Assembly: GCA_009691105.1 (NCBI GenBank)
Contig: SHVU01000001.1
Location: forward strand, 22,882-86,881
Source: Rhodospirillales bacterium
Lineage (GTDB): Bacteria; Pseudomonadota; Alphaproteobacteria; Rhodospirillales; SHVU01
DNA: 64,000 nt
Direction of reading: 5' to 3'
The notes beneath the pieces are model-generated. The model did not search any database. It was not told the origin of the DNA and was given only the letters and a program-made list of their open reading frames with translations. This document shows, in pieces, positions 1 through 61,891 of the stretch (position 1 is the first letter of the stretch; each line of letters opens with the position of its first letter). The position numbers and the translations under genes are program-made.

Positions 1-297
1 CTCGAGGGCTCGGACTTTCAGAAAAAAGCCTGGGCCGCCATCGCCGATATCCCGTGGGGCGAGGTCCGCACCTATGGCGAGGTCGCAGCCCGCATCGGAT
101 CGTCGGCCCGGGCCATGGGCGCGGCCTGCCGGACCAATCCGCTTCCGATTATCATCCCGTGCCATCGCGTCGTCGGGGCGAATGGCGCATTGACGGGCTA
201 TTCCGGCGGTGAGGGGCTATCGACCAAACAGGCGTTGCTGGCGCTTGAAGGCCCGCTCGAGCAGAGCGATCTCTTCCAGCCGAAGAAGCCATCGTGA
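1..297 (+). CDS. ogt: methylated-DNA--protein-cysteine methyltransferase, C-terminal part (5' end lies off the window)
   Basis: Frame 1 is open from base 1. The translation ...WGEVRTYGEVAARIG...NPLPIIIPCHRVVGANGALTGYSGG carries the PCHRV active-site motif of the Ogt/Ada family. Stop TGA at 295-297. Confidence 0.85.
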   Translation, partial: LEGSDFQKKAWAAIADIPWGEVRTYGEVAARIGSSARAMGAACRTNPLPIIIPCHRVVGANGALTGYSGGEGLSTKQALLALEGPLEQSDLFQPKKPS

Positions 298-315: not shown

Positions 316-1293
316 ATGACCAAGGCCATCATCATTCACTCAACAGGCGGGCCCGAAGTTATGAAATGGGAAACCGTCGACGTCGGCCGGCCTGCCAAGG
401 GCCAGGTCCGTATTCGCCAGACTGCCGTCGGGCTTAACTATATCGACGTCTACTATCGCTCGGGCTTCTATCCGATCACCAAATTTCCGAGCTCCATCGG
501 CCTCGAAGCCGCCGGCGTCATCGAAGAGATCGGGCCCGGCGTCAAAGGCCTCAAGGTCGGAATGCGCGTCGCTTATTGCTCGCGGCCCAACGGCGCCTAT
601 GCCGAGACCCGGCTCTACGACGCCGCCAGCGTCGTGCCGCTGCCGAAATCGATCACCGACAAGACCGCCGCGGCGATGATGCTGAAAGGCCTCACCGCCG
701 AATATCTCCTGCGCCGCACCTACAAGGTCGGCAAGGGCGACACCATCCTGGTCCACGCCGCCGCTGGCGGCGTCGGGCTCATCCTCTGCCAATGGGGCAA
801 GCATCTCGGGGCGACGGTCATCGGCACCGTCGGCTCGGACGCCAAAGCCAAAGTCGCCAAGGCCAACGGCTGCCATCATCCGATCGTCTACACCCGCGAG
901 AATTTCCGCGAGCGGGTTCGCGAGATCACCGGCGGCGAAGGCTGCGACGTCGTCTACGACTCGGTCGGCAAGACCACGTTTGCGGAATCGCTCGGCTGCT
1001 TGCGCCGCCGCGGCATGATGGTGACCTTCGGCAACGCCTCCGGTCCGGTGCTGCCGATCAGTCCGTTGCTGCTGTCGCAACACGGCTCGCTCTTTCTCAC
1101 GCGGCCGTCGCTCGGTGATTACGTCGCGACGCGGCGCGAATTACTGACCGCCGCCGAGGCGCTCTTCGATGTCGTGAAGAAAAAGAAGGTCAAGATCCAC
1201 GTCAACCAGACGTACCCGCTGCGCGACGCCGCGCAGGCTCACGCCGATCTTGCGGCGCGCAAGACGACGGGATCGACGGTTCTGATTCCGTAA
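316..1293 (+). CDS. qor: NADPH:quinone oxidoreductase (zinc-type alcohol dehydrogenase superfamily)
   Basis: 325-aa ORF with MDR-family layout, an AAGGVG nucleotide-binding loop, and an N-terminus (VRIRQTAVGLNYIDVYYRSGFY) typical of Qor. Confidence 0.85.
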   Translation: MTKAIIIHSTGGPEVMKWETVDVGRPAKGQVRIRQTAVGLNYIDVYYRSGFYPITKFPSSIGLEAAGVIEEIGPGVKGLKVGMRVAYCSRPNGAYAETRLYDAASVVPLPKSITDKTAAAMMLKGLTAEYLLRRTYKVGKGDTILVHAAAGGVGLILCQWGKHLGATVIGTVGSDAKAKVAKANGCHHPIVYTRENFRERVREITGGEGCDVVYDSVGKTTFAESLGCLRRRGMMVTFGNASGPVLPISPLLLSQHGSLFLTRPSLGDYVATRRELLTAAEALFDVVKKKKVKIHVNQTYPLRDAAQAHADLAARKTTGSTVLIP

Positions 1294-1385: not shown

Positions 1386-2642
1386 CTATGTGTTCATCGA
1401 TTCGAAGAATTCCTGATTGGTCTTGGTGCCGCGGAGCTTCTCGAGCAGGAACTCCATCGAGTCGACCACGCCCATCGGCAACAGGATGCGGCGCAGCACC
1501 CACATCTTCGACAGCGTGCCCTTGTCGACCAGCAGCTCTTCTTTGCGCGTTCCCGACTTGGTGATGTCGAGCGACGGCCAGGTGCGGCGATCGGTGAGCT
1601 TGCGATCGAGAATGATTTCCGAGTTACCGGTGCCCTTGAATTCTTCGAAGATGACTTCGTCCATCCGCGAGCCGGTATCGATCAGGGCGGTCGAGATGAT
1701 GGTCAGCGACCCGCCTTCCTCGATGTTGCGCGCCGCGCCAAAGAAGCGCTTCGGACGCTGCAGGGCGTTGGCATCGACGCCGCCGGTCAGCACTTTGCCC
1801 GACGACGGCACCACGGTGTTGTAGGCTCGCGCCAGGCGCGTGATCGAGTCGAGTAGGATCACGACGTCGCGCTTGTGTTCGACCAGCCGCTTGGCTTTCT
1901 CGATCACCATTTCGGCAACCGCGACGTGACGCGACGCCGGCTCGTCGAAGGTCGAGCTCACGACCTCGCCCTTCACCGAGCGATCCATGTCGGTGACTTC
2001 CTCGGGCCGCTCGTCGATGAGCAGCACGATCAGGTAGCACTCGGGATGGTTGCTGGCGATGGCGTGGGCGATGTTCTGCAGCATCATCGTCTTGCCGGTG
2101 CGCGGCGGCGCGACGATCAACGCGCGCTGGCCTTTGCCGATCGGCGTGACGAGATCGAGAACCCGCAGAGTCGGATCCTTGCTGTCGTTCTTTTTGACTT
2201 CCATCTGCAAGCGCTCATCGGGATAGAGCGGCGTCAGGTTGTCGAAATTGATGCGGTGGCGGACCTTGTCGGGGTCCTCGAAGTTGATGTGGTTGACGCG
2301 GAGTAGCGAGAAATACCGCTCGCCGTCCTTGGGCGAACGGATCTGGCCTTCGACCGTGTCGCCGGTGCGCAGACCGAAGCGTCGCACTTGGCTCGGCGAG
2401 ACGTAGATGTCGTCGGGCCCGGCAAGATAATTCGCTTCCGGCGAGCGGAGAAATCCGAAGCCGTCCTGCAAAACTTCCAACACGCCCGAGCCGAAGATCG
2501 GAACGTCGTTGACCGCGAGCTGTTTCAAGATCGCGAACATCATGTCCTGCTTGCGCAGGTTGCTCGCGTTCTCGACCTGAAGCTCTTCGGCGTAGCTGAG
2601 CAGATCAGCCGGGGATTTAGCCTTGAGTTCTTTGAGGTCCAT
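1386..2642 (-). CDS. rho: transcription termination factor Rho
   Basis: 418 aa. N-terminal [15 protein letters not shown]..., RNA-binding domain, Walker A PPRTGKT, full-length Rho architecture. Confidence 0.97.
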
Positions 2643-2877: not shown

Positions 2878-3321
2878 TCAGAACGGCTTCACGACCGCGA
2901 GGATGGCGATCACGACGACCAGCACTGTCGGAATTTCGTTGAGAAGGCGATAGACGCGAGCTGAGCGCGTGTTGCGATCGGCGGCGAAGGCTTTGCGACA
3001 GCCGGCGAGAAATCCATGCAAGCCGGCGAGCACCAACACCAAGCCAAGCTTGCCGTGCAGCCATCCGGCCCGACCAAGCTCGGGATGTTCCGCCAGCATC
3101 AAGCCGCCGAGCAGAAACACCGCAATCATCGCCGGGTTCATGATGCCGCGAAGCAAACGCCGCTCCATGATTTTGAACGTCTCGGCTTGGGGACCAGCGG
3201 GCGTCTCGGCGTGATAGACGAACAGCCGCGGCAAATACCAAAGCCCCGCCATCCACGCCATGACGGCGACGATGTGGAGCGCTTTGATGACGAGGTAAGC
3301 GTCGTGGCTCAGGCCAAGCAT
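2878..3321 (-). CDS. hemJ: protoporphyrinogen IX oxidase HemJ (UPF0093 / CopD-like membrane protein)
   Basis: Last 147 aa of the 455-aa track ORF: MLGLSHDAYLVIKALHIVAVMAWMAGLWYLPRLFVYH... Four predicted TM segments. ATG at 3321 preceded by AGGA. Sits 8 nt after the hemH stop. Confidence 0.85.
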   Translation of the reverse strand: MLGLSHDAYLVIKALHIVAVMAWMAGLWYLPRLFVYHAETPAGPQAETFKIMERRLLRGIMNPAMIAVFLLGGLMLAEHPELGRAGWLHGKLGLVLVLAGLHGFLAGCRKAFAADRNTRSARVYRLLNEIPTVLVVVIAILAVVKPF

Positions 3322-3329
3322 CGTCCTGC

Positions 3330-4370
3330 TTACGCCGATCCGGTCGTGATCGGCAAGGGACATGCGCGGCTCGAGCTCGGACAGATCCGCTTTCCGTCGC
3401 CGGCGACGATCATCGCGCCGCGTCCGTGGGCGGCGCGGACCAGCCGCGCCAGACCGGCAATAAACGCCGGTTCGGTTCCGACCGTGGGCACGCGCACGTA
3501 GGACGGCACGGTGTGGTCCTGGGCGCGCTTTCGGTATTCGATGTCGAGCTCGACCAAAGTTTCTGAATGCTCCGAGACGAAGGCGATGGGCACTACGACG
3601 ACAGCGCGACCGTCGAGGCCGGCCCGCGCGATCTCGGACTCGGTCGAGGGCCCAATCCATTTCAGCGGGCCGACGCGGCTTTGGTAGCAGACGACGGACT
3701 CGACATCGCCGAGCCCAGACCGGATCGCGGCTGCAGTGCGTTCGACCTGGCCGGGATACGGATCGCCGCGTGCCACGATGCGCTCCGGCAAACCGTGCGC
3801 CGAGAACAGGATGCGCGGCGGCGCGTTCGCAGCGCGACGGGCTTGCTCGACGCCGGCGCGCGTCAACGTCGTGAGCGCGGCGATAAATCCAGCTTCGGTC
3901 GGGTAGCAGCAGATCGCACTGGTCGGCACGTCGAGGCCGGCACGGCGCGCGGCACGATGCCACTCGTCGAGCGACGAAGCCGTGGTCGTCGTCGAGTACT
4001 GCGGATAGAGCGGCAAAAGCACGATCGCATCGGGCGCATAGGCTTTCACGGCCTGCGCCGTGGCGTCGCTCATCGGATGCCAGTAGCGCATGGCGATGAA
4101 GGCTCGAACGTCTTCCCCAAGTTCGGCTTCGAGAGCCTTCGCCTGTTTTTCGGTCTCGGCCAGGATTGGCGAGCCGCCACCGAGCTCGGCATATATTTTC
4201 TGGGCGACGGCGGTGCGGCGTTTCGCGATCAGCCGCGCCAGCCATCCCCGGAACGGCGACGGCACGGCCAGGATCGCCGGATCGCTGAACAGATTGGTCA
4301 GGAACGGCTGCACGGCCTCCGGTCGATCGGGACCGCCGAGGTTGAACAGGACGACCGCGGTCTTGGCCAC
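3330..4370 (-). CDS. hemH: ferrochelatase
   Basis: Ferrochelatase homology across the ORF (TAVVLFNLGGPD..., LLPLYPQYSTTT, FSAHGLPE, EHSETLVELD). Start set to GTG at 4370 (codon 4368-4370), 4 nt after the hemE stop. An alternative ATG at 4418 would overlap hemE. Confidence 0.9.
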   Translation of the reverse strand: MAKTAVVLFNLGGPDRPEAVQPFLTNLFSDPAILAVPSPFRGWLARLIAKRRTAVAQKIYAELGGGSPILAETEKQAKALEAELGEDVRAFIAMRYWHPMSDATAQAVKAYAPDAIVLLPLYPQYSTTTTASSLDEWHRAARRAGLDVPTSAICCYPTEAGFIAALTTLTRAGVEQARRAANAPPRILFSAHGLPERIVARGDPYPGQVERTAAAIRSGLGDVESVVCYQSRVGPLKWIGPSTESEIARAGLDGRAVVVVPIAFVSEHSETLVELDIEYRKRAQDHTVPSYVRVPTVGTEPAFIAGLARLVRAAHGRGAMIVAGDGKRICPSSSRACPLPITTGSA

Positions 4371-4374
4371 GCCC

Positions 4375-5415
4375 TCAGGCCTTCCAGGCCCGGACGAGCC
4401 CAACGAGTTCGGCGACATGCTCAGGCGGCGTTTCTGGCAGAACACCGTGGCCAAGGTTGAAGACGAACGGACCACGGCCGAGGGTGTCGAGGATGCGCGT
4501 GACTTCGGTTTTAAGCGCCGCGCCACCGGCAACCAGGGCCTGGTTGTCGAAGTTGCCTTGGACGGCGACCCGAGACTGCAATTCGTCGCGCGCCCAGGCG
4601 AGCGGCACCGTGCTGTCGAGGCCGACCGCATCAACGCCGGTCTTCGACGCGTAGTCGCGATAGAGCGCCCCGGCGCCGCGGGGAAATCCAATCACTGGGA
4701 TCTCGGGATGCGCCGCTTTGAACCGGCGGACAACTTCGCGAGTCGGCGCGATGACCCAGCGTTCGAACTGGCTTTCCCCGAGAAGCCCGGCCCAGCTATC
4801 AAAAATCTGGACGGCATCGGCCCCGGCATCGGCCTGCTTCACGAGATGCTCGGCCGTCGCCGCGACCAAGGCCTGGATCAACCGCTCGAACGACGCCGAA
4901 TCGCGCCAGGCCCAGCGCCTGGCCTTGGTGAACTCGCCGCCGCCCCGGCCCTCGACCATGTAGGCCGCGATGGTCCAGGGGGCTCCGGCAAACCCGATCA
5001 CCGCGACATTGGCCGGCCGCGTCGCTTTCAAACCGGCGACAGCTTTCCACACCGGGGCTAGCCGGTCAGCCAGGCGTGCCGCTTCGAAGCTCGGAATATC
5101 GCGTTCGTCAGCGATCGGCTCCAAAACCGGCCCGACGCCTTCCCGAAACTCAACCTTCCGGCCGAGCGCATCTGGGATCACCATGATATCGCTGAAAATG
5201 ATCGCCGCATCGAAGCCGAACCGTCGGATCGGTTGCATCGAGAGCTCGACACAGGTCTGGGGCTGGTAACACAGCTCCAGAAAGTTCTCGGACTTGCCGC
5301 GCAGCTCACGGTATTCCGGCAGATACCGCCCGGCCTGGCGCATCAGCCACAAGGGCGGCTTGGCCAACGTCTCGCCCTTGAGAGTACGCACCAGGGCAAG
5401 CGCCAAGTCGGTCAT
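4375..5415 (-). CDS. hemE: uroporphyrinogen decarboxylase
   Basis: 346 aa. PPLWLMRQAGRYLPEYR signature at the N-terminus, full-length HemE. Confidence 0.95.
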   Translation of the reverse strand: MTDLALALVRTLKGETLAKPPLWLMRQAGRYLPEYRELRGKSENFLELCYQPQTCVELSMQPIRRFGFDAAIIFSDIMVIPDALGRKVEFREGVGPVLEPIADERDIPSFEAARLADRLAPVWKAVAGLKATRPANVAVIGFAGAPWTIAAYMVEGRGGGEFTKARRWAWRDSASFERLIQALVAATAEHLVKQADAGADAVQIFDSWAGLLGESQFERWVIAPTREVVRRFKAAHPEIPVIGFPRGAGALYRDYASKTGVDAVGLDSTVPLAWARDELQSRVAVQGNFDNQALVAGGAALKTEVTRILDTLGRGPFVFNLGHGVLPETPPEHVAELVGLVRAWKA

Positions 5416-5705
5416 CCCGTGTTCTACTACTACTAAGATTCTTTATAAGAAGATTGTAGTGGTGGTAGTGAGGTGAAAATCGGGGATCATTGATAGTGCG
5501 TGGAACGCCTTGATGAAGCTGGGGATGAAATAAAAATCGAGCTTGGTCTGTGCGCAAGTCCCCGTCGACATCATCGGTTCGCTTATAGTGACGCGCCTTC
5601 TAACACAGTGAATCACGGGGACCGGATGCCGCTGCGAACCTCTATCTCTTTCGGAATATCCCGTTCGTCCAAGGTTGCACACACGAGGGTGATATCACTT
5701 TTGAT
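5416..5705. other. candidate chromosomal replication origin (oriC) in the hemE/DUF299 intergenic gap
   Basis: Non-coding gap between divergent hemE and the DUF299 gene, the conserved alphaproteobacterial origin location. Locally AT-rich: 20 G/C in the 60 nt at 5421-5480. DnaA-box-like complements TGATCCCCG (5481-5489) and TCATCCCCA (5520-5528). A/T run at 5524-5540. Gene orientation flips here. Confidence 0.5.
5424..5468. repeat. imperfect inverted repeat centred on TATA (5444-5447)
   Basis: CTACTACTACT (5424-5434) pairs with AGTGGTGGTAG (5458-5468): 9 Watson-Crick pairs plus 2 T/G positions. The inner arms AAGATTCTT / AAGAAGATT are partly complementary. Confidence 0.7.
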
Positions 5706-6611
5706 TTGGGGCAAGGGGGAATGGAATCGCCAATTCGACGCGAACCGCCGATTATCCCCAAGTCATCCCCAGGATATGAACCGGTCGTCGTGACGAAGGA
5801 ATTCAACCTGCATCTGGTCTCGGATTCGACCGGCGAAACCGTGATTACGGTGGCGCGGGCCGGCATCGCGCAGTTCGACGACATCCAAGCCAAGGAATAC
5901 GTCTGGCCGCTGGTTCGGTCCCGCGAGATGGTGACCGAGGTCTTGGCGGCGATCGAGAAGAACCCCGGCATGGTGCTCTTCACCATGGTCAACACCGACG
6001 TCCGGAAAACCCTCGAGGCCGGCTGCTGCCGCCTCGGCATTCCCTGCATCTCGATCCTGGATCCGGTCTTCGCGGCGCTGGGCTTGTACCTCAAGGCCGA
6101 GGTCGGGCATCGCCCCGGCCGCCAGCACATGCTGGACGCGGAGTATTTCGAGCGGATCGCGGCGATGGAATACGCGCTGAGCCACGACGACGGCCAGGCG
6201 ACCCGTGATCTGGAATCGGCCGACGTCCTGCTGCTCGGCGTATCGCGGACCTCGAAGTCGCCGACCTGCATTTATCTCGCCAACCGTGGCGTCCGGGCGG
6301 CGAACGTGCCGATCGTCGCTGGCGTGGAACTACCGCCCGAGGTTCTCGCTGCGAAAGGTCCCTTGAAGGTCGGTCTGACCAAGGATCCGCGCCGCCTTGT
6401 CCAGATCCGGCGCAACCGCCTCAAGTCGCTCGAGATCGACGAAGACACCGACTACATCGACTTCGACAAAGTCACCGGCGAAGTCACCGCCGCGCGGCGG
6501 CTGTTCGCCGAACAGGGCTGGCCGGTGATCGATGTGACGCGCCGCTCGGTCGAAGAAACCGCGGCCGCGATCATTCAGCTTTTGAAAACCCATCGGGAGC
6601 GAACCGCCTGA
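5706..6611 (+). CDS. ppsR: pyruvate,phosphate dikinase / PEP synthase regulatory protein (DUF299 kinase/pyrophosphorylase)
   Basis: FNLHLVSDSTGET near the N-terminus and the P-loop GVSRTSKSP, typical of the PSRP/PDRP family. The start could be the ATG at 5721 instead of 5706. Confidence 0.85.
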   Translation: MGQGGMESPIRREPPIIPKSSPGYEPVVVTKEFNLHLVSDSTGETVITVARAGIAQFDDIQAKEYVWPLVRSREMVTEVLAAIEKNPGMVLFTMVNTDVRKTLEAGCCRLGIPCISILDPVFAALGLYLKAEVGHRPGRQHMLDAEYFERIAAMEYALSHDDGQATRDLESADVLLLGVSRTSKSPTCIYLANRGVRAANVPIVAGVELPPEVLAAKGPLKVGLTKDPRRLVQIRRNRLKSLEIDEDTDYIDFDKVTGEVTAARRLFAEQGWPVIDVTRRSVEETAAAIIQLLKTHRERTA

Positions 6612-7201: not shown

Positions 7202-7235
7202 GATGGCGTCGGCTGAACGCCAGCGGGGACTCATC

Positions 7236-8096
7236 ATGAAGCTCGGTTGCATCGTTCCGGAAAAAGCGAAACTCATCGGCCTGCTCGGACTTCCGTTGAG
7301 CGGCATTCTTTCACCCCGGTTGTTCGCCTATCTGCTCGGTCAGAAAGGCATCGACGGTGCGGTCGTCGTCATGGAGACCCAGCCCGAGGACCTCGGCTCG
7401 GTCCTCAAAACATTGCCCAAGATTGGCTTCGTCGGTTTCAGCGTCACCGCGCCCCACAAGCTCGAAGCGATGAAATACGTCGACGAGCTAGACCCGATGG
7501 CGAGGCGCCTGGGCGCGCTCAACTGCATCGTCGTAAAGCCCGACGGTCGCTTGATCGGAAAAAACATCGATACATACGGCTTCATCGAGCACTTGAAGGC
7601 AACGCTCGTTGGGTTTCCGTTTAAGAAAACCTCCACCGTTGTGGTCGGCGCCGGCGGCGCGGCGCGGTCGAGCTGCGCCGTCTTGCTCGACGAAGGCGTT
7701 CCCGAAATTCGTCTCGTCAATCGTTCGCTGGAGCGGGCGAGCGCTCTTGCGAAATTCATCGGCGGGCCGATCAAGGTCGTGCCGTGGGCGGATCGCGAGG
7801 CGGCTCTCGACGGCGCCGGGCTGCTGGTGAACACCACGACCCAAGGCATGACGCCGAACCCGCCGCTCGATTTGAAGCTCGATCGGTTGTCGCGAACTGC
7901 CGCTGTCTACGACATCGTCCGCACGCCCATCGATACGCCTTTGCTGAAAGCGGCGCGCAGCCGTGGGCACCCCATTGTCGACGGCGTCGGCATGGTGCTG
8001 CACCAGGCGAAGCTGTCCTGCACCGAATGGTTCGGATTCACGCCTGAGATCACTCCGGCGACTCGCACCTTCGTCGTCGAGGGCCGCCTTCCGTGA
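7236..8096 (+). CDS. shikimate dehydrogenase-like paralog (divergent substrate pocket)
   Basis: Full-length AroE fold (VTAPHK, GKNIDTYGF, GAGGAARS, LLVNTTTQGM). Differs from canonical AroE at several shikimate-contact positions. Start at ATG 7236, with an alternative ATG at 7203. Confidence 0.8.
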   Translation: MKLGCIVPEKAKLIGLLGLPLSGILSPRLFAYLLGQKGIDGAVVVMETQPEDLGSVLKTLPKIGFVGFSVTAPHKLEAMKYVDELDPMARRLGALNCIVVKPDGRLIGKNIDTYGFIEHLKATLVGFPFKKTSTVVVGAGGAARSSCAVLLDEGVPEIRLVNRSLERASALAKFIGGPIKVVPWADREAALDGAGLLVNTTTQGMTPNPPLDLKLDRLSRTAAVYDIVRTPIDTPLLKAARSRGHPIVDGVGMVLHQAKLSCTEWFGFTPEITPATRTFVVEGRLP

Positions 8097-8962
8097 CGGC
8101 CGCTGGGCCAGGCAGCGGGCCAAGCGGTCGGGCCCGCGTTGCTGGTGTGATCGGGTGGCCGACCGGCCATTCGTTGTCGCCGCGGCTTCACGGCTTTTGG
8201 CTTCGCGCCCACGGCGTCGACGGCGCGTATGTGCCGCTTCCGGTGCGGCCCGAAGATTTCGAAACCGCGATCCGGACGCTGGCCAAGCTCGGGTTCTCCG
8301 GCGCCAACATCACGGTGCCGCATAAGGAACGCGCGCTTCGGATTTGCGACGACGTCGAAGATCAGGCTCGCCGCATCGGCGCGGTGAACACGCTGGTCGT
8401 GCGCGACGGAAAGATTCTCGGCCGCAACACCGATGCCTACGGGTTCGTCGCCAATCTCAAAGCGGCACGACCGGCGCTGAATCTTCGCGCCGCTCCCGCC
8501 GCTGTTATCGGCGCCGGCGGCGCGGCCCGGGCCGTCGCCGCGGCGCTGATCGACGAAGGCGTTCCGGAATTGCGCATCGCCAATCGGACCGCCGAACGGG
8601 CCGAGGTTTTGGCCCGCGCTCTCGGCCCGAAACTCACGGTCGTTCCCTGGGACCAGCGCGCCGCGATGCTCGATGGCGCCGGGTTGCTGGTGAACACCAC
8701 GACCCAAGGCATGACGCCGAACCCGCCCCTCGATCTGGCGCTCGACCGCTTGCCGAAGACCGCGGTCGTCAACGACCTCGTTTATGTGCCGATCGAAACG
8801 CCTCTGCTCGCCGCCGCCAAGGCGCGCGGCAATCCGACGGTCGATGGTCTTGGCATGCTTCTCTATCAAGCGAAGCCCGCGTTCGCGGCGTTCTTCGGCG
8901 TCGAGCCCGAGGTCACGCCGGAGCTTCGCGCCTTCGTTCTCGCCGGCCTCGCCACACGATGA
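8093..8962 (+). CDS. aroE: shikimate dehydrogenase (NADP+)
   Basis: 289 aa with canonical motifs GHSLSPRLH, NITVPHK, GRNTDAYGF, GAGGAARA, LLYQA. The GTG start overlaps the upstream stop (GTGA at 8093-8096). Confidence 0.9.
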   Translation: MTAAGPGSGPSGRARVAGVIGWPTGHSLSPRLHGFWLRAHGVDGAYVPLPVRPEDFETAIRTLAKLGFSGANITVPHKERALRICDDVEDQARRIGAVNTLVVRDGKILGRNTDAYGFVANLKAARPALNLRAAPAAVIGAGGAARAVAAALIDEGVPELRIANRTAERAEVLARALGPKLTVVPWDQRAAMLDGAGLLVNTTTQGMTPNPPLDLALDRLPKTAVVNDLVYVPIETPLLAAAKARGNPTVDGLGMLLYQAKPAFAAFFGVEPEVTPELRAFVLAGLATR

Positions 8963-9621
8963 TCATTGTCGGGCTGACCGGCTCGATCGGCATGGGCAAG
9001 ACGACGACGGCCGCGGCCTTTCGCCGGCTGGGGATTCCCGTTCACGACGCCGACCGCGTCGTGCATGGGTTGACCGCGCCCGGCGGAAAAATACTTCCCG
9101 TGATCGAAAAAGCGTTTCCGGGATCGGTGATCGCGGGTCGCCTAGATCGCGCCGGCCTCGGCAAGCGAGTCTTCGACGATCCGAAAGCGCTGGCCCGGCT
9201 GGAAGCGATCCTGCATCCCCAAGTCCGCGCCGCGAAACTCGACTTCCTCGACAACGCCGCCCGGCGTCGCGAGCCCATCGTCGTTCTCGATATCCCGCTG
9301 CTCTTCGAAAAAGGTTCCGACCGGTGGTGCGACGTGGTCGTCGTGGCCTCCGCGCCGCCAACGATTCAAGCCCGTCGCGTCCTTGCCCGTCCCGGCATGA
9401 GTGCGGCGAAGTTGGCCGCCGTTCTTGGTCGTCAGGTGAGCGACCGCGTCAAGCGCCGCCGTGCAGATTTCATCGTGGATACCGGCTTGGGCTTGAGTTA
9501 TGCCTTCCGTCAGGTCCGCCGCATCGTCGTTCAGGTTCGGAAGCGACGCGGCACCAGCTGGCCCTTTCGTGGGCGCATGGGTCGGCAGCGTGCCGACGCG
9601 CGAACCGTCCGAGGCACATGA
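8959..9621 (+). CDS. coaE: dephospho-CoA kinase
   Basis: MIIVGLTGSIGMGKTT P-loop N-terminus, and ILHPQVR. ATG 8959 overlaps the aroE stop (ATGA). The track ORF's long Arg-rich N-terminal extension is out-of-frame overlap with aroE. Confidence 0.9.
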   Translation: MIIVGLTGSIGMGKTTTAAAFRRLGIPVHDADRVVHGLTAPGGKILPVIEKAFPGSVIAGRLDRAGLGKRVFDDPKALARLEAILHPQVRAAKLDFLDNAARRREPIVVLDIPLLFEKGSDRWCDVVVVASAPPTIQARRVLARPGMSAAKLAAVLGRQVSDRVKRRRADFIVDTGLGLSYAFRQVRRIVVQVRKRRGTSWPFRGRMGRQRADARTVRGT

Positions 9622-10289
9622 CGCGCGAAATCATTCTCGATACAGAAACCACCGGACTCGATCACTCTACCGGCGATCGCATCGTCGAGATCGGCTGCGT
9701 CGAGCTCGACCATCATCGCCCGACCGGCCGGACCTTTCAGCGCTACCTCAATCCCGATCGCGACATGCCGGCCGGCGCCGTAGCCGTCCACGGACTGACC
9801 CGCGAATTCCTGTCGCGCCATCCGCGCTTCGCTCAAGTCGTCGACGATTTTCTGACGTTCATCGGCGACGCGCCGCTGGTCATCCACAATGCCGAATTCG
9901 ACGTCGGCTTCATCAATGCGGAACTGACGCGGGCCGGCCGGCCGCTCATCTTGATCGAGCGTGCTGTCGATACCGTGACCATTGCCCGGCGACGTTTTCC
10001 CGGCGCTCCGGCCAGCCTCGACGCGCTCTGCCGTCGCTTCGCGATCGACGTCAGCCAGCGCACGCTGCACGGCGCCCTCAAGGACGCCGATCTACTGGCG
10101 AAGGTTTATTTCGAATTGATCGGTGGCCGCGAGCCGACCCTGGCGCTGGCCGCCGGCATTCAAGTGTCGTTGGGTCCGGTGGCGACGGGCCCGGTGCGGC
10201 CAAAGCGGCCTCACGCGCCGACTCCCGCCGAAATCGAAGCGCATACGCGCTTCGTCGATAAGCTTAAGAACCCGATTTGGCGGGGCTAG
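9618..10289 (+). CDS. dnaQ: DNA polymerase III subunit epsilon (3'-5' exonuclease)
   Basis: MTREIILDTETTGLD (Exo I), VIHNAEFDVGF (Exo II), HGALKDADLLAKVY (Exo III). ATG 9618 overlaps the coaE stop (ATGA). Confidence 0.92.
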   Translation: MTREIILDTETTGLDHSTGDRIVEIGCVELDHHRPTGRTFQRYLNPDRDMPAGAVAVHGLTREFLSRHPRFAQVVDDFLTFIGDAPLVIHNAEFDVGFINAELTRAGRPLILIERAVDTVTIARRRFPGAPASLDALCRRFAIDVSQRTLHGALKDADLLAKVYFELIGGREPTLALAAGIQVSLGPVATGPVRPKRPHAPTPAEIEAHTRFVDKLKNPIWRG

Positions 10290-61379: not shown

Positions 61380-61739
61380 CTACTGACCTGTCGGTCTCCA
61401 CATTTGGGCCTGCAGTTCGCCCTGGGCGATTTCGGCTCGGCTCATACTGCGGGCGATTCGGTCGCGGGCTTCGGCGGCCCTGGGCTCGTTTTGCCGAGCC
61501 GCTAAGGTGAACCACATATAGGCGGCTACCTTGTCGACCTGGCCGCGTTCGTGAAGAAGTCCTACGGCGACCTGGGCAACGGAATCACCGGCATTGGCAA
61601 GAGGCTGCCATTCGCGCAACGTGGCCGCATAGTCGCCACGGTTATACGCAGCCTCGCCGGTTTTGACGTCGGCGTTGGTTATGGATGGCGAAATGAGGGA
61701 AACGGAGATAACGGCAGCGACAAGCAGGCGTCTCATCAT
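61380..61739 (-). CDS. secreted Sel1-repeat (TPR-like) protein
   Basis: C-terminal 119 aa of the track ORF. Signal peptide MMRRLLVAAVISVSLISPSITNA. Sel1-like units GDSVAQVAVGLLHERGQ and AAYMWFTLAARQNEPRA. Confidence 0.7.
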   Translation of the reverse strand: MMRRLLVAAVISVSLISPSITNADVKTGEAAYNRGDYAATLREWQPLANAGDSVAQVAVGLLHERGQVDKVAAYMWFTLAARQNEPRAAEARDRIARSMSRAEIAQGELQAQMWRPTGQ

Positions 61740-61891
61740 GGAATGAGCTCCGGCGTCGGTCCGTCGACTATTATATCGACGTCCACGTGTTCCGCTATGG
61801 ACGGTTGAGGCGGATTTTCGTCGTCTTGATCTCTGAACGCCGCGCGTGGCATAGTCGCTCAAAATAAGCCGTTGGCGAATAACGCGACGGC

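Follow-up and report, generated by a model that had tools for sequence, protein, structure and literature searches.

A candidate hemE-linked chromosomal replication origin in an uncultured Rhodospirillales lineage

Background

Sibley et al. reportedly mapped the replication origin of Sinorhizobium meliloti experimentally next to hemE in 2006. The Caulobacter origin lies at the hemE/duf299 gap (PMC6393856), the Rickettsia origin has been reported in the hemE gap (PMC1914354) and the oriC of Azospirillum has been predicted between yqfL and hemE (bioRxiv 10.64898/2026.09.14.751567). The origin gaps between hemE and the COG1806 gene measure 383-404 bp in Rickettsia and Caulobacter (PMC1914354), the consensus of the Caulobacter weak box (W-box) is TCCCCA (PMC4285127) and the oriC of A. 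baldaniorum, an Ori-Finder/DoriC prediction, contains DnaA boxes in both orientations, about six in all (bioRxiv 10.64898/2026.09.14.751567). Here we describe the corresponding region in a 64-kb stretch (the window) of SHVU01000001.1, an 89-kb contig in the metagenome-assembled genome (MAG) of a Rhodospirillales bacterium, namely the intergenic region between the divergent genes hemE and ppsR, which we refer to as the gap.

Judged by its genes and its sequence, this gap corresponds by orthology to the origin linked to hemE in Caulobacter, Rickettsia, Sinorhizobium and Azospirillum, and it is very probably the active chromosomal origin of this Rhodospirillales replicon. This interpretation is supported because the synteny, an enriched cluster of DnaA boxes, the least stable duplex of the window, purifying selection on the gap and the literature all point to the same place. 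A first-pass annotation, made from the letters of the sequence, had also read the gap as a replication origin, and the same five lines of evidence now speak for it.

Gene order and boundaries of the gap

The gene order of the window was determined with Pfam in combination with a codon-usage gene model. In this model hemE, on the minus strand, faces ppsR-maf-aroE-coaE-dnaQ on the plus strand, which is the flanking-gene arrangement of a Cori-type oriC (Cori being the Caulobacter crescentus origin), and the wider order, ogt-ADH-rho-hemJ-hemH-hemE on one side and ppsR-maf-aroE-coaE-dnaQ-secB-Tim44-mltA on the other, is the known alphaproteobacterial origin neighbourhood. The relatives L083-L085 (we number the loci used for comparison with the prefix L) have the same gene order around the gap. 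The orientation of the genes also fits an origin, with 44 plus-strand and 19 minus-strand genes to the right of the gap and four minus-strand and two plus-strand genes to the left. The identities that the first-pass annotation had given to hemE and to the DUF299/ppsR gene agree with the Pfam matches, and the four minus-strand genes that it had counted to the left are rho, hemJ, hemH and hemE; for the eight plus-strand genes that it had counted from ppsR to dnaQ our gene model gives six, the last of which (dnaQ) ends at 10289.

The right boundary of the gap required correction. The first-pass annotation had used TTG 5706 as the ppsR start, which left a gap of 290 bp that it described as short. 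Three observations place the start at GTG 5790 instead: the relative L081 (90% identical) carries an in-frame TGA 24 codons 5' of the conserved GTG with no start codon in between, ppsR homologues are mostly 272-277 amino acids long, and publicly available gene calls for an ENA metagenome contig, which include a protein identical to the hemE product of the window, put 374 nt between the starts of hemE and ppsR. With this start the gap runs from 5416 to 5789, and its 374 bp are near the gap sizes of Rickettsia and Caulobacter rather than short. The ppsR product of the window is 100% identical to a protein of an NCBI MAG. The NCBI annotation of ppsR (296 amino acids, from ATG 5721) probably starts too early as well. 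The recovered stretch, 5706-5789, is non-coding in L081 and holds the conserved tandem DnaA boxes, TTATCCCCA and a second TCATCCCCA (5752-5771), which had been missed when this stretch was taken as coding.

Enrichment of DnaA boxes

The enrichment of box motifs was tested against dinucleotide shuffles of the gap itself, with 5000 shuffles in the case of ATCCCC. TCCCCA occurs three times in the gap where 0.30 occurrences are expected (P=0.0026), and ATCCCC occurs four times where 0.40 are expected, a count that none of the 5000 shuffles reached. The window contains five T[TCG]ATCCCC sites when both strands are considered, four of them between 5481 and 5771, and 13 TCCCCA sites, three of them within the gap; TCCCCA is absent from all other intergenic regions of the window. 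All five window sites that fit a loose box pattern are of the TCCCC type, and TTATCCCCA is among only five sites in 64 kb that lie within one mismatch of the generic consensus TTATCCACA. It is through this TCCCCA/ATCCCC core that the cluster exceeds chance, with the counts of the generic consensus not significant.

Conservation of the gap among relatives

To place the gap among its homologues, 80 loci around hemE homologues were fetched among the matches listed (identity ≤58%), together with several closer relatives; the pooled statistics cover the 75 fetched loci in which both hemE and ppsR were found, with 1.4 Mb of flanking sequence. The two genes are divergent in all 75 and mostly lie about 400-440 bp apart. 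The pattern T[TGC][AG]TCC[AC]CA is found at 3.73/kb in these gaps versus 0.075/kb in the flanks, an enrichment of about 50-fold, and TCCCCA at 1.85/kb versus 0.23/kb. The boxes also recur at particular places. A plus-strand box lies 28-52 nt before the ppsR start in 14 loci (the window and 13 others), and in 23 loci a reverse-oriented [CA][GA]GGAT[TC]A is found at 50-75 nt from the hemE start, the modal bin, which includes the box that the window carries at 66-74 nt. The TCCCC type accounts for 58% of the boxes in the 12 closest loci versus 27% in 60 mostly Rhizobiales loci (Fisher P=9e-4).

Two relatives allow the gap to be compared directly. L086 is the closest (93% hemE identity), and over the 199 nt that can be compared, up to about 5615 where L086 ends, its gap is 91% identical without insertions or deletions, while identity at third codon positions is 75% for hemE and 79% for hemH. 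Because the gap is more conserved than these third codon positions, we conclude that it is under purifying selection. L081 is more distant, with 67% identity at the third codon positions of ppsR, and covers the gap apart from the hemE-proximal 80 nt; here only islands of the gap are retained, namely ATTTCATCCC, CTGTGCGCAAGTC, AGTGAATCAyGGGG, TTGCmCACACGrGGGyGATATC and the tandem boxes. The shared box positions, the identity to L086 and the islands kept in L081 establish orthology to the origin gaps of the relatives at the level of the sequence.

A separate observation concerns L084/L085, on a 2.5-Mb ENA contig, where a DDE_Tnp_1 transposase gene (8376-9545) lies inside the hemE/ppsR gap, which is stretched to 1741 bp, and where ppsR is 63% identical. 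By its position, this insertion sequence sits within the presumed origin.

Duplex stability and trio-like triplets

Duplex stability was calculated from nearest-neighbour stacking energies at scales of 30, 50 and 80 nt across the whole 64 kb. The candidate DNA unwinding element (Table 1) stands about 5 standard deviations from the mean at the 50-nt scale, with -58.2 kcal/mol versus a mean of -80.3 (standard deviation 4.4) and a next best value of -65.8. The gap has a guanine-cytosine (GC) content of 50% in a window of 64.9%, and the two signs of AT-richness that the first-pass annotation had pointed out, 20 G/C per 60 nt at 5421-5480 and the A/T run GATGAAATAAAAATCGA at 5524-5540, are both correct. 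The AT-rich element lies beside the boxes, which is the arrangement of the unwinding element in a Cori-type oriC. It contains a 21-bp AT core (5436-5456, 24% GC) with a GANTC site at 5437-5441, and an imperfect palindrome at about 5424-5468 for which a DNA hairpin of -6.1 kcal/mol (z=-2.2) is calculated.

The triplets on the two arms of this palindrome resemble DnaA-trios. In the basal unwinding system (BUS), a forward box and a spacer are followed by 5'-CTA-3' repeats on the same strand (PMC8287927, PMC8235120); the DnaA-trio has been defined with 5'-CTA-3' stated as its complement (PMC8235120), and the trio rule calls for at least three consecutive units with a central A, 3'-NAN-5', the consensus being 3'-GAT-5' (PMC8287927). 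By this rule the left arm of our palindrome, (CTA)4, has four perfect units and the right arm, TAG TGG TGG TAG TGA, breaks the central-A requirement. The second array is followed on its right by GGTGAAAAT and CGGGGATCA, which read as ATTTTCACC and TGATCCCCG on the opposite strand. L083, L006, L024 and L026 have in-phase T[AGT]G runs of four or more units in the same place, L014 and L004 look similar by eye, and (CTA)3 is kept in L086 and L088. Because the runs recur in relatives and (CTA)3 is kept, we argue that the triplet arrays are likely to be functional.

We also applied the BUS requirement for the box, which should have no more than 2 mismatches, lie within 16 bp of the trios and be oriented toward them. 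Box and trios are 3 nt apart on the left arm and 12 nt apart on the right arm, and the orientation fits on both sides; with 4 (left) and 3 (right) mismatches to TTATCCACA, the boxes would qualify only if a lineage-specific T(C/G/T)ATCCCC consensus were applied. The agreement with the BUS is incomplete. The left box, TCATCCCGT, is also found at the hemE start in L030 and L086 and may reflect only the context of the hemE start codon, and ATTTTCACC has the position of TGTGGGAAT in L002 and of TGTGGACAA in L004. Taking these features together, one could imagine a two-sided BUS in which convergent modules of box and triplets flank the 21-bp AT core, with boxes that are all of the weak TCCCC type and without CtrA control. 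The left module may be formed by TCATCCCGT followed by (CTA)4 and the right module by TGATCCCCG and ATTTTCACC followed by CTA CCA CCA CTA on the minus strand. We offer this design tentatively, as a possibility on the unlikely side. If it were true, DnaA filaments could engage both strands, and it would be a lineage-wide variant of origin design, as the mirrored triplet arrays are found in partial form in L083, L006, L014, L004 and the Kordiimonas loci L024 and L026, further alphaproteobacteria outside the Rhizobiales.

The same palindrome could be the operator of a dimeric regulator or a hairpin in the 5' leader of hemE, and not an unwinding element with DnaA-trios. It is 8 nt away from the start codon of hemE and would enter the hemE leader transcript, its calculated hairpin energy is as given above, its right arm fails the rule of ≥3 consecutive NAN units and its left box matches at only 5/9. 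Such a reading would have to accommodate the fact that Rfam gives no match, either for the window at the gathering threshold or for the gap at E up to 1, and that the two differences from L086 in the left arm have no compensation in the right arm. The T[AGT]G arrays recur beside boxes in relatives that are otherwise unalignable, which is more in keeping with a repeat that is read in threes than with a fixed operator, and the palindrome is the place in the window that melts most easily. We judge an operator or leader hairpin in place of the unwinding element to be improbable, while noting that it and a role in the origin could be true together. An Irr/ICE-box reading of the palindrome was dropped, the orientation of the half-sites being reversed.

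Table 1. Coordinates of the gap, its candidate sites and the genes that adjoin it (positions in the window)
Feature	Positions	Strand	Basis or remarks
ogt	1-297	+	left of gap; Pfam/gene model
ADH	316-1293	+	left of gap; Pfam/gene model
rho	1386-2642	-	left of gap; Pfam/gene model
hemJ	2878-3321	-	left of gap; Pfam/gene model
hemH	3330-4370	-	left of gap; Pfam/gene model
hemE (uroporphyrinogen decarboxylase), left boundary gene	4375-5415	-	Pfam URO-D, E=2e-113
TCATCCCGT, weak box-like 9-mer (5/9)	5412-5420	+	read from sequence; overlaps hemE start codon, directed at (CTA)4
Candidate oriC, entire hemE/ppsR intergenic region, 374 bp	5416-5789
Candidate DNA unwinding element	5418-5497		least stable duplex in 64 kb at all three scales
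(CTA)4, four perfect DnaA-trio consensus units (3'-GAT-5' on minus strand)	5424-5435	+	sequence
TAG TGG TGG TAG TGA, trio-like array	5457-5471	+	triplet scan; 5' of two reverse-oriented boxes
ATTTTCACC, degenerate box (5/9)	5472-5480	-	read from sequence; tandem with TGATCCCCG; direct repeat D3
TGATCCCCG, DnaA-box-like	5481-5489	-	pattern scan; 66-74 nt from hemE start
TCATCCCCA, candidate W-type DnaA box	5520-5528	-	core ATTTCATCCC kept in L081, L086
CTGTGCGCAAGTC, conserved 13-mer	5548-5560		identical in L081, L086; CTGTGCGCAAGT also in L003
CGGTCCCCG then TGATTCACT (6/9), tandem box-like pair	5607-5624	-	conserved island in L081, L086; second holds GANTC 5610-5614
TTGCACACACGAGGGTGATATCAC, conserved island	5675-5698		includes perfect 10-bp palindrome GTGATATCAC (5689-5698); upstream of ppsR
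TTATCCCCA, best DnaA box in 64 kb (8/9)	5752-5760	+	38 nt upstream of ppsR start; kept in L081 as TTGTCCCCA
TCATCCCCA, second box of ppsR-proximal tandem pair	5763-5771	+	identical in L081
DUF299/ppsR-family kinase/pyrophosphorylase (COG1806, RP001 homologue), right boundary gene	5790-6611	+	Pfam PF03618, E=1e-89; corrected start GTG 5790

Other features of the gap and its surroundings

Several of the sites in Table 1 are related to one another. The box at 5520-5528 is the perfect 10-nt inverted partner of 5763-5772, and the pair at 5607-5624 is a direct repeat (D3) of 5473-5486. For the conserved 13-mer CTGTGCGCAAGTC two readings are possible, a hemE promoter of which it would form the -35 region, or a degenerate box (TGTGCGCAA, 6/9). 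Read on the minus strand, CTGTGCGCAAGTC and ATTTCATCCC look like the -35 and -10 elements of such a promoter, in which case the putative -10 would overlap the DnaA box. The 16-nt spacing between CTGTGCGCAAGTC (5548-5560) and ATTTCATCCC (5522-5531) is exactly kept in L081 despite a diverged spacer. The island at 5675-5698 has no sigma-70-like match on the plus strand, and a promoter scan, which returned a single weak minus-strand match overlapping the tandem boxes, was not used.

Within the plus-strand run to the right of the gap, maf and coaE are separated by two tandem shikimate-dehydrogenase paralogues (7203-8096 and 8147-8962, 52% amino acid identity), where L083 and L084 have a single aroE. 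Further to the right follow secB on the minus strand, the Tim44-like gene, mltA, lutABC, smr, a gene with a helix-turn-helix (HTH) domain, hslUV on the minus strand and hisB, with dnaK/dnaJ at about 35-38 kb.

Points against an origin and the alternatives they raise

A number of results weigh against placing the origin in this gap, and they are collected here together with the explanations that they would favour. The first group concerns the generic box consensus. With ≤2 mismatches to TTATCCACA there are 3 sites in the gap versus 1.09 expected (P=0.09), with ≤3 mismatches there are 9 versus 7.8 expected, which is not significant, and no box in the gap fits the full consensus. The first-pass annotation had reported GGGGATCA at 5482-5489 and GGGGATGA at 5521-5528 and had drawn from them the DnaA-box matches TGATCCCCG (6/9, 5481-5489) and TCATCCCCA (7/9, 5520-5528), with a weaker ATATCCCGT at 5656-5664. 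All of these are exact as positions and letters; as matches to the generic consensus they are at chance level, the 6/9 match being included in the count at ≤3 mismatches and the 5/9 match being weaker still. In generic box counts, two further places in the window equal the gap. The one at 61.3 kb was rejected as a rival origin, being mostly coding for a small Sel1-repeat open reading frame (ORF). This ORF (61380-61751, minus strand) has a hydrophobic, signal-peptide-like N-terminus and a weak Sel1-repeat match, and it fills most of an apparent 623-bp intergenic region with three box hits at ≤2 mismatches.

These counts would be expected if weak motif matches had come together by chance in an intergenic region that is AT-rich but otherwise ordinary. 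The GANTC sites add little in the other direction: to the two at 5437 and 5610, which the first-pass annotation had located correctly, a third at 5724 can be added, and the resulting 8/kb in the gap versus 2.9/kb in the window, in a stretch that is richer in AT, is no clear excess with three sites. The enrichment of TCCCCA and ATCCCC, however, survives shuffling of the gap, the motifs are kept in relatives at matching positions and the gap is more conserved than synonymous sites, and we give a chance cluster hardly any credence.

The second group concerns strand composition. The raw plus-strand GC skew is slightly positive to the left of the gap and slightly negative to the right, the opposite of a naive origin signature. 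On the coding strand, C outweighs G at third codon positions (skew about -0.2), and the genes switch strand at the gap; the two together account for the sign of the raw skew, so that the raw skew neither supports nor refutes an origin. The replication-associated component of the skew to the right of the gap, +0.011, is not significant (P about 0.4-0.5), with only 5.4 kb to the left for comparison, and a scan of third codon positions for a switch point found no significant switch in the window, the best fit, at about 23 kb, also being not significant. Between minus-strand genes to the left and to the right, the third-codon-position skew gives a one-sided P=0.02, again with only 5.4 kb to the left of the gap. 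The KOPS-like motif GGGNAGGG has one site per strand in the window and, pooled over 10 kb to either side of the gap in loci L002-L083, does not change its preferred strand there; we regard its distribution as uninformative on the origin. On the strand equivalent to the plus strand of the window, GGGNAGGG is the commoner on both sides (64 versus 38 on the left and 56 versus 27 on the right).

The third group concerns genes and sites that might have been expected nearby: dnaA was not found in the 64-kb window, including the 58 kb to the right of the gap, and parS is absent from the window at up to 3 mismatches. With dnaA not nearby and no skew switch demonstrable, the gap could be only the divergent promoter and regulatory region of hemE and ppsR, in which DnaA or another factor regulates transcription and initiation takes place elsewhere, for example near dnaA. 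Both promoters must indeed fit in the gap, and CTGTGCGCAAGTC with its 16-nt spacing to ATTTCATCCC, as well as GTGATATCAC, resemble promoter or operator elements. A gap devoted to transcription would leave unexplained that the same gap is the mapped origin of Caulobacter, the reported one of Rickettsia and the predicted one of Azospirillum (PMC6393856, PMC1914354, bioRxiv 10.64898/2026.09.14.751567), that DnaA boxes are 50-fold enriched in it across 75 lineages and that no duplex in the 64 kb is less stable than the one it contains, where trio-like arrays adjoin boxes. As promoter and origin roles coexist in Caulobacter, this explanation mostly overlaps with that of an origin, and we consider a gap with promoters only to be very unlikely.

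Proposed mechanism and significance

From the arrangement of the sites we infer how an origin at the hemE/ppsR gap would bind DnaA, unwind and fire. DnaA would occupy the ppsR-proximal tandem pair, TTATCCCCA and TCATCCCCA in plus orientation, and also the hemE-proximal, minus-oriented array at 5607-5624, 5520-5528 and 5472-5489. DnaA-ATP would then oligomerise from the boxes beside the AT-rich element onto the trio-like triplets and melt 5418-5497, to be followed by helicase loading and bidirectional replication. The gap would also have to house the promoters of hemE and ppsR, and the unwinding element would lie in the path of transcription toward hemE, as in Caulobacter.

The regulation of this candidate origin may be of a different kind from that of Caulobacter. 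Neither an IHF consensus site nor TTAA-N7-TTAA, the sites of the Caulobacter and Rickettsia type of regulation, was found in the window; the first-pass annotation had found no TTAA-N7-TTAA in the gap, and this holds over the whole window. CtrA and IHF sites mark the Caulobacter/Rickettsia regulatory subtype and not an oriC as such. Because the window has no CtrA or IHF site, repression of the cell-cycle type by CtrA would not be expected here. The first-pass annotation had taken the lack of CtrA boxes as a possible difference in control from Caulobacter; the lack itself stands, and it is the common state, a full CtrA site being present in only 8 of the 75 fetched gaps.

An origin annotation for this uncultured Rhodospirillales lineage would be useful for orienting assemblies, for growth-rate estimates from read depth and for shuttle vectors, and the ppsR start in the public annotation is corrected along with it. 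The gap suggests that the boxes of a hemE-linked origin can all be of the TCCCC type and that such an origin can do without CtrA and IHF sites, which would add to the diversity of alphaproteobacterial origin control, and the mirrored trio-like arrays provide a lead on duplex opening in this group. The current understanding of these origins is not overturned.

Comparison with known origins

The closest described system is Cori of Caulobacter crescentus, which lies between hemE and CCNA_00001/duf299. The flanking genes are the same, and the gap of Cori measures 404 bp compared with 374 bp here (PMC1914354). Both have weak boxes with a TCCCCA core and an AT-rich element on the hemE side (PMC6393856, PMC4285127), both have GANTC sites, one of them within a box-like site, and both gaps house the promoters of hemE and duf299, putatively so in the window. 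Cori differs in having five TTAA-N7-TTAA CtrA sites where the window has none, and the window is without the IHF consensus site and without the moderate-affinity G-box TGATCCACA. In Rickettsia prowazekii and other Rickettsia the boundary genes, hemE and RP001-COG1806, are again the same and the gap is 383-396 bp (PMC1914354); the Rickettsia regions are far more AT-rich and have reported CtrA and IHF sites, neither of which occurs in the window. Azospirillum baldaniorum, which belongs to the same order, Rhodospirillales, has the same gene pair (bioRxiv 10.64898/2026.09.14.751567). Its parAB lies about 12 kb from oriC (bioRxiv 10.64898/2026.09.14.751567), whereas our window, in which no parS was found, reaches only 5.4 kb to the left of the gap.

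The Rhizobiales (Sinorhizobium/Ensifer, Brucella and Agrobacterium; L034, L047, L054 and others) share the divergent hemE and ppsR, with a gap of about 410 bp, the hemE-proximal ...CTGTG-N-CGGGGAT(T/C)A and a plus-strand box about 40 nt before ppsR. They differ in having mostly TCCACA-type boxes, at the fixed positions -192, -154, -103 and -44, together with a GANTC-rich AT block, whereas the boxes of the window are of the TCCCC type and only partly co-positioned. The BUS of Bacillus subtilis and Helicobacter pylori is similar in its order of box, spacer and CTA repeats on one strand with an AT-rich tract after them (PMC8287927, PMC8235120), and on the right arm of the window the more conserved box likewise precedes the triplets, 12 nt from the first TAG. 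The window differs from it in having two convergent modules rather than one, in the trios of its right arm, which have a central G in 2 of 4 units and again in TGA, and in its boxes, which are 3-4 mismatches from TTATCCACA. Set beside all of these systems, the gap is unusual in just two respects, in having weak boxes throughout and in its mirrored trio-like arrays.

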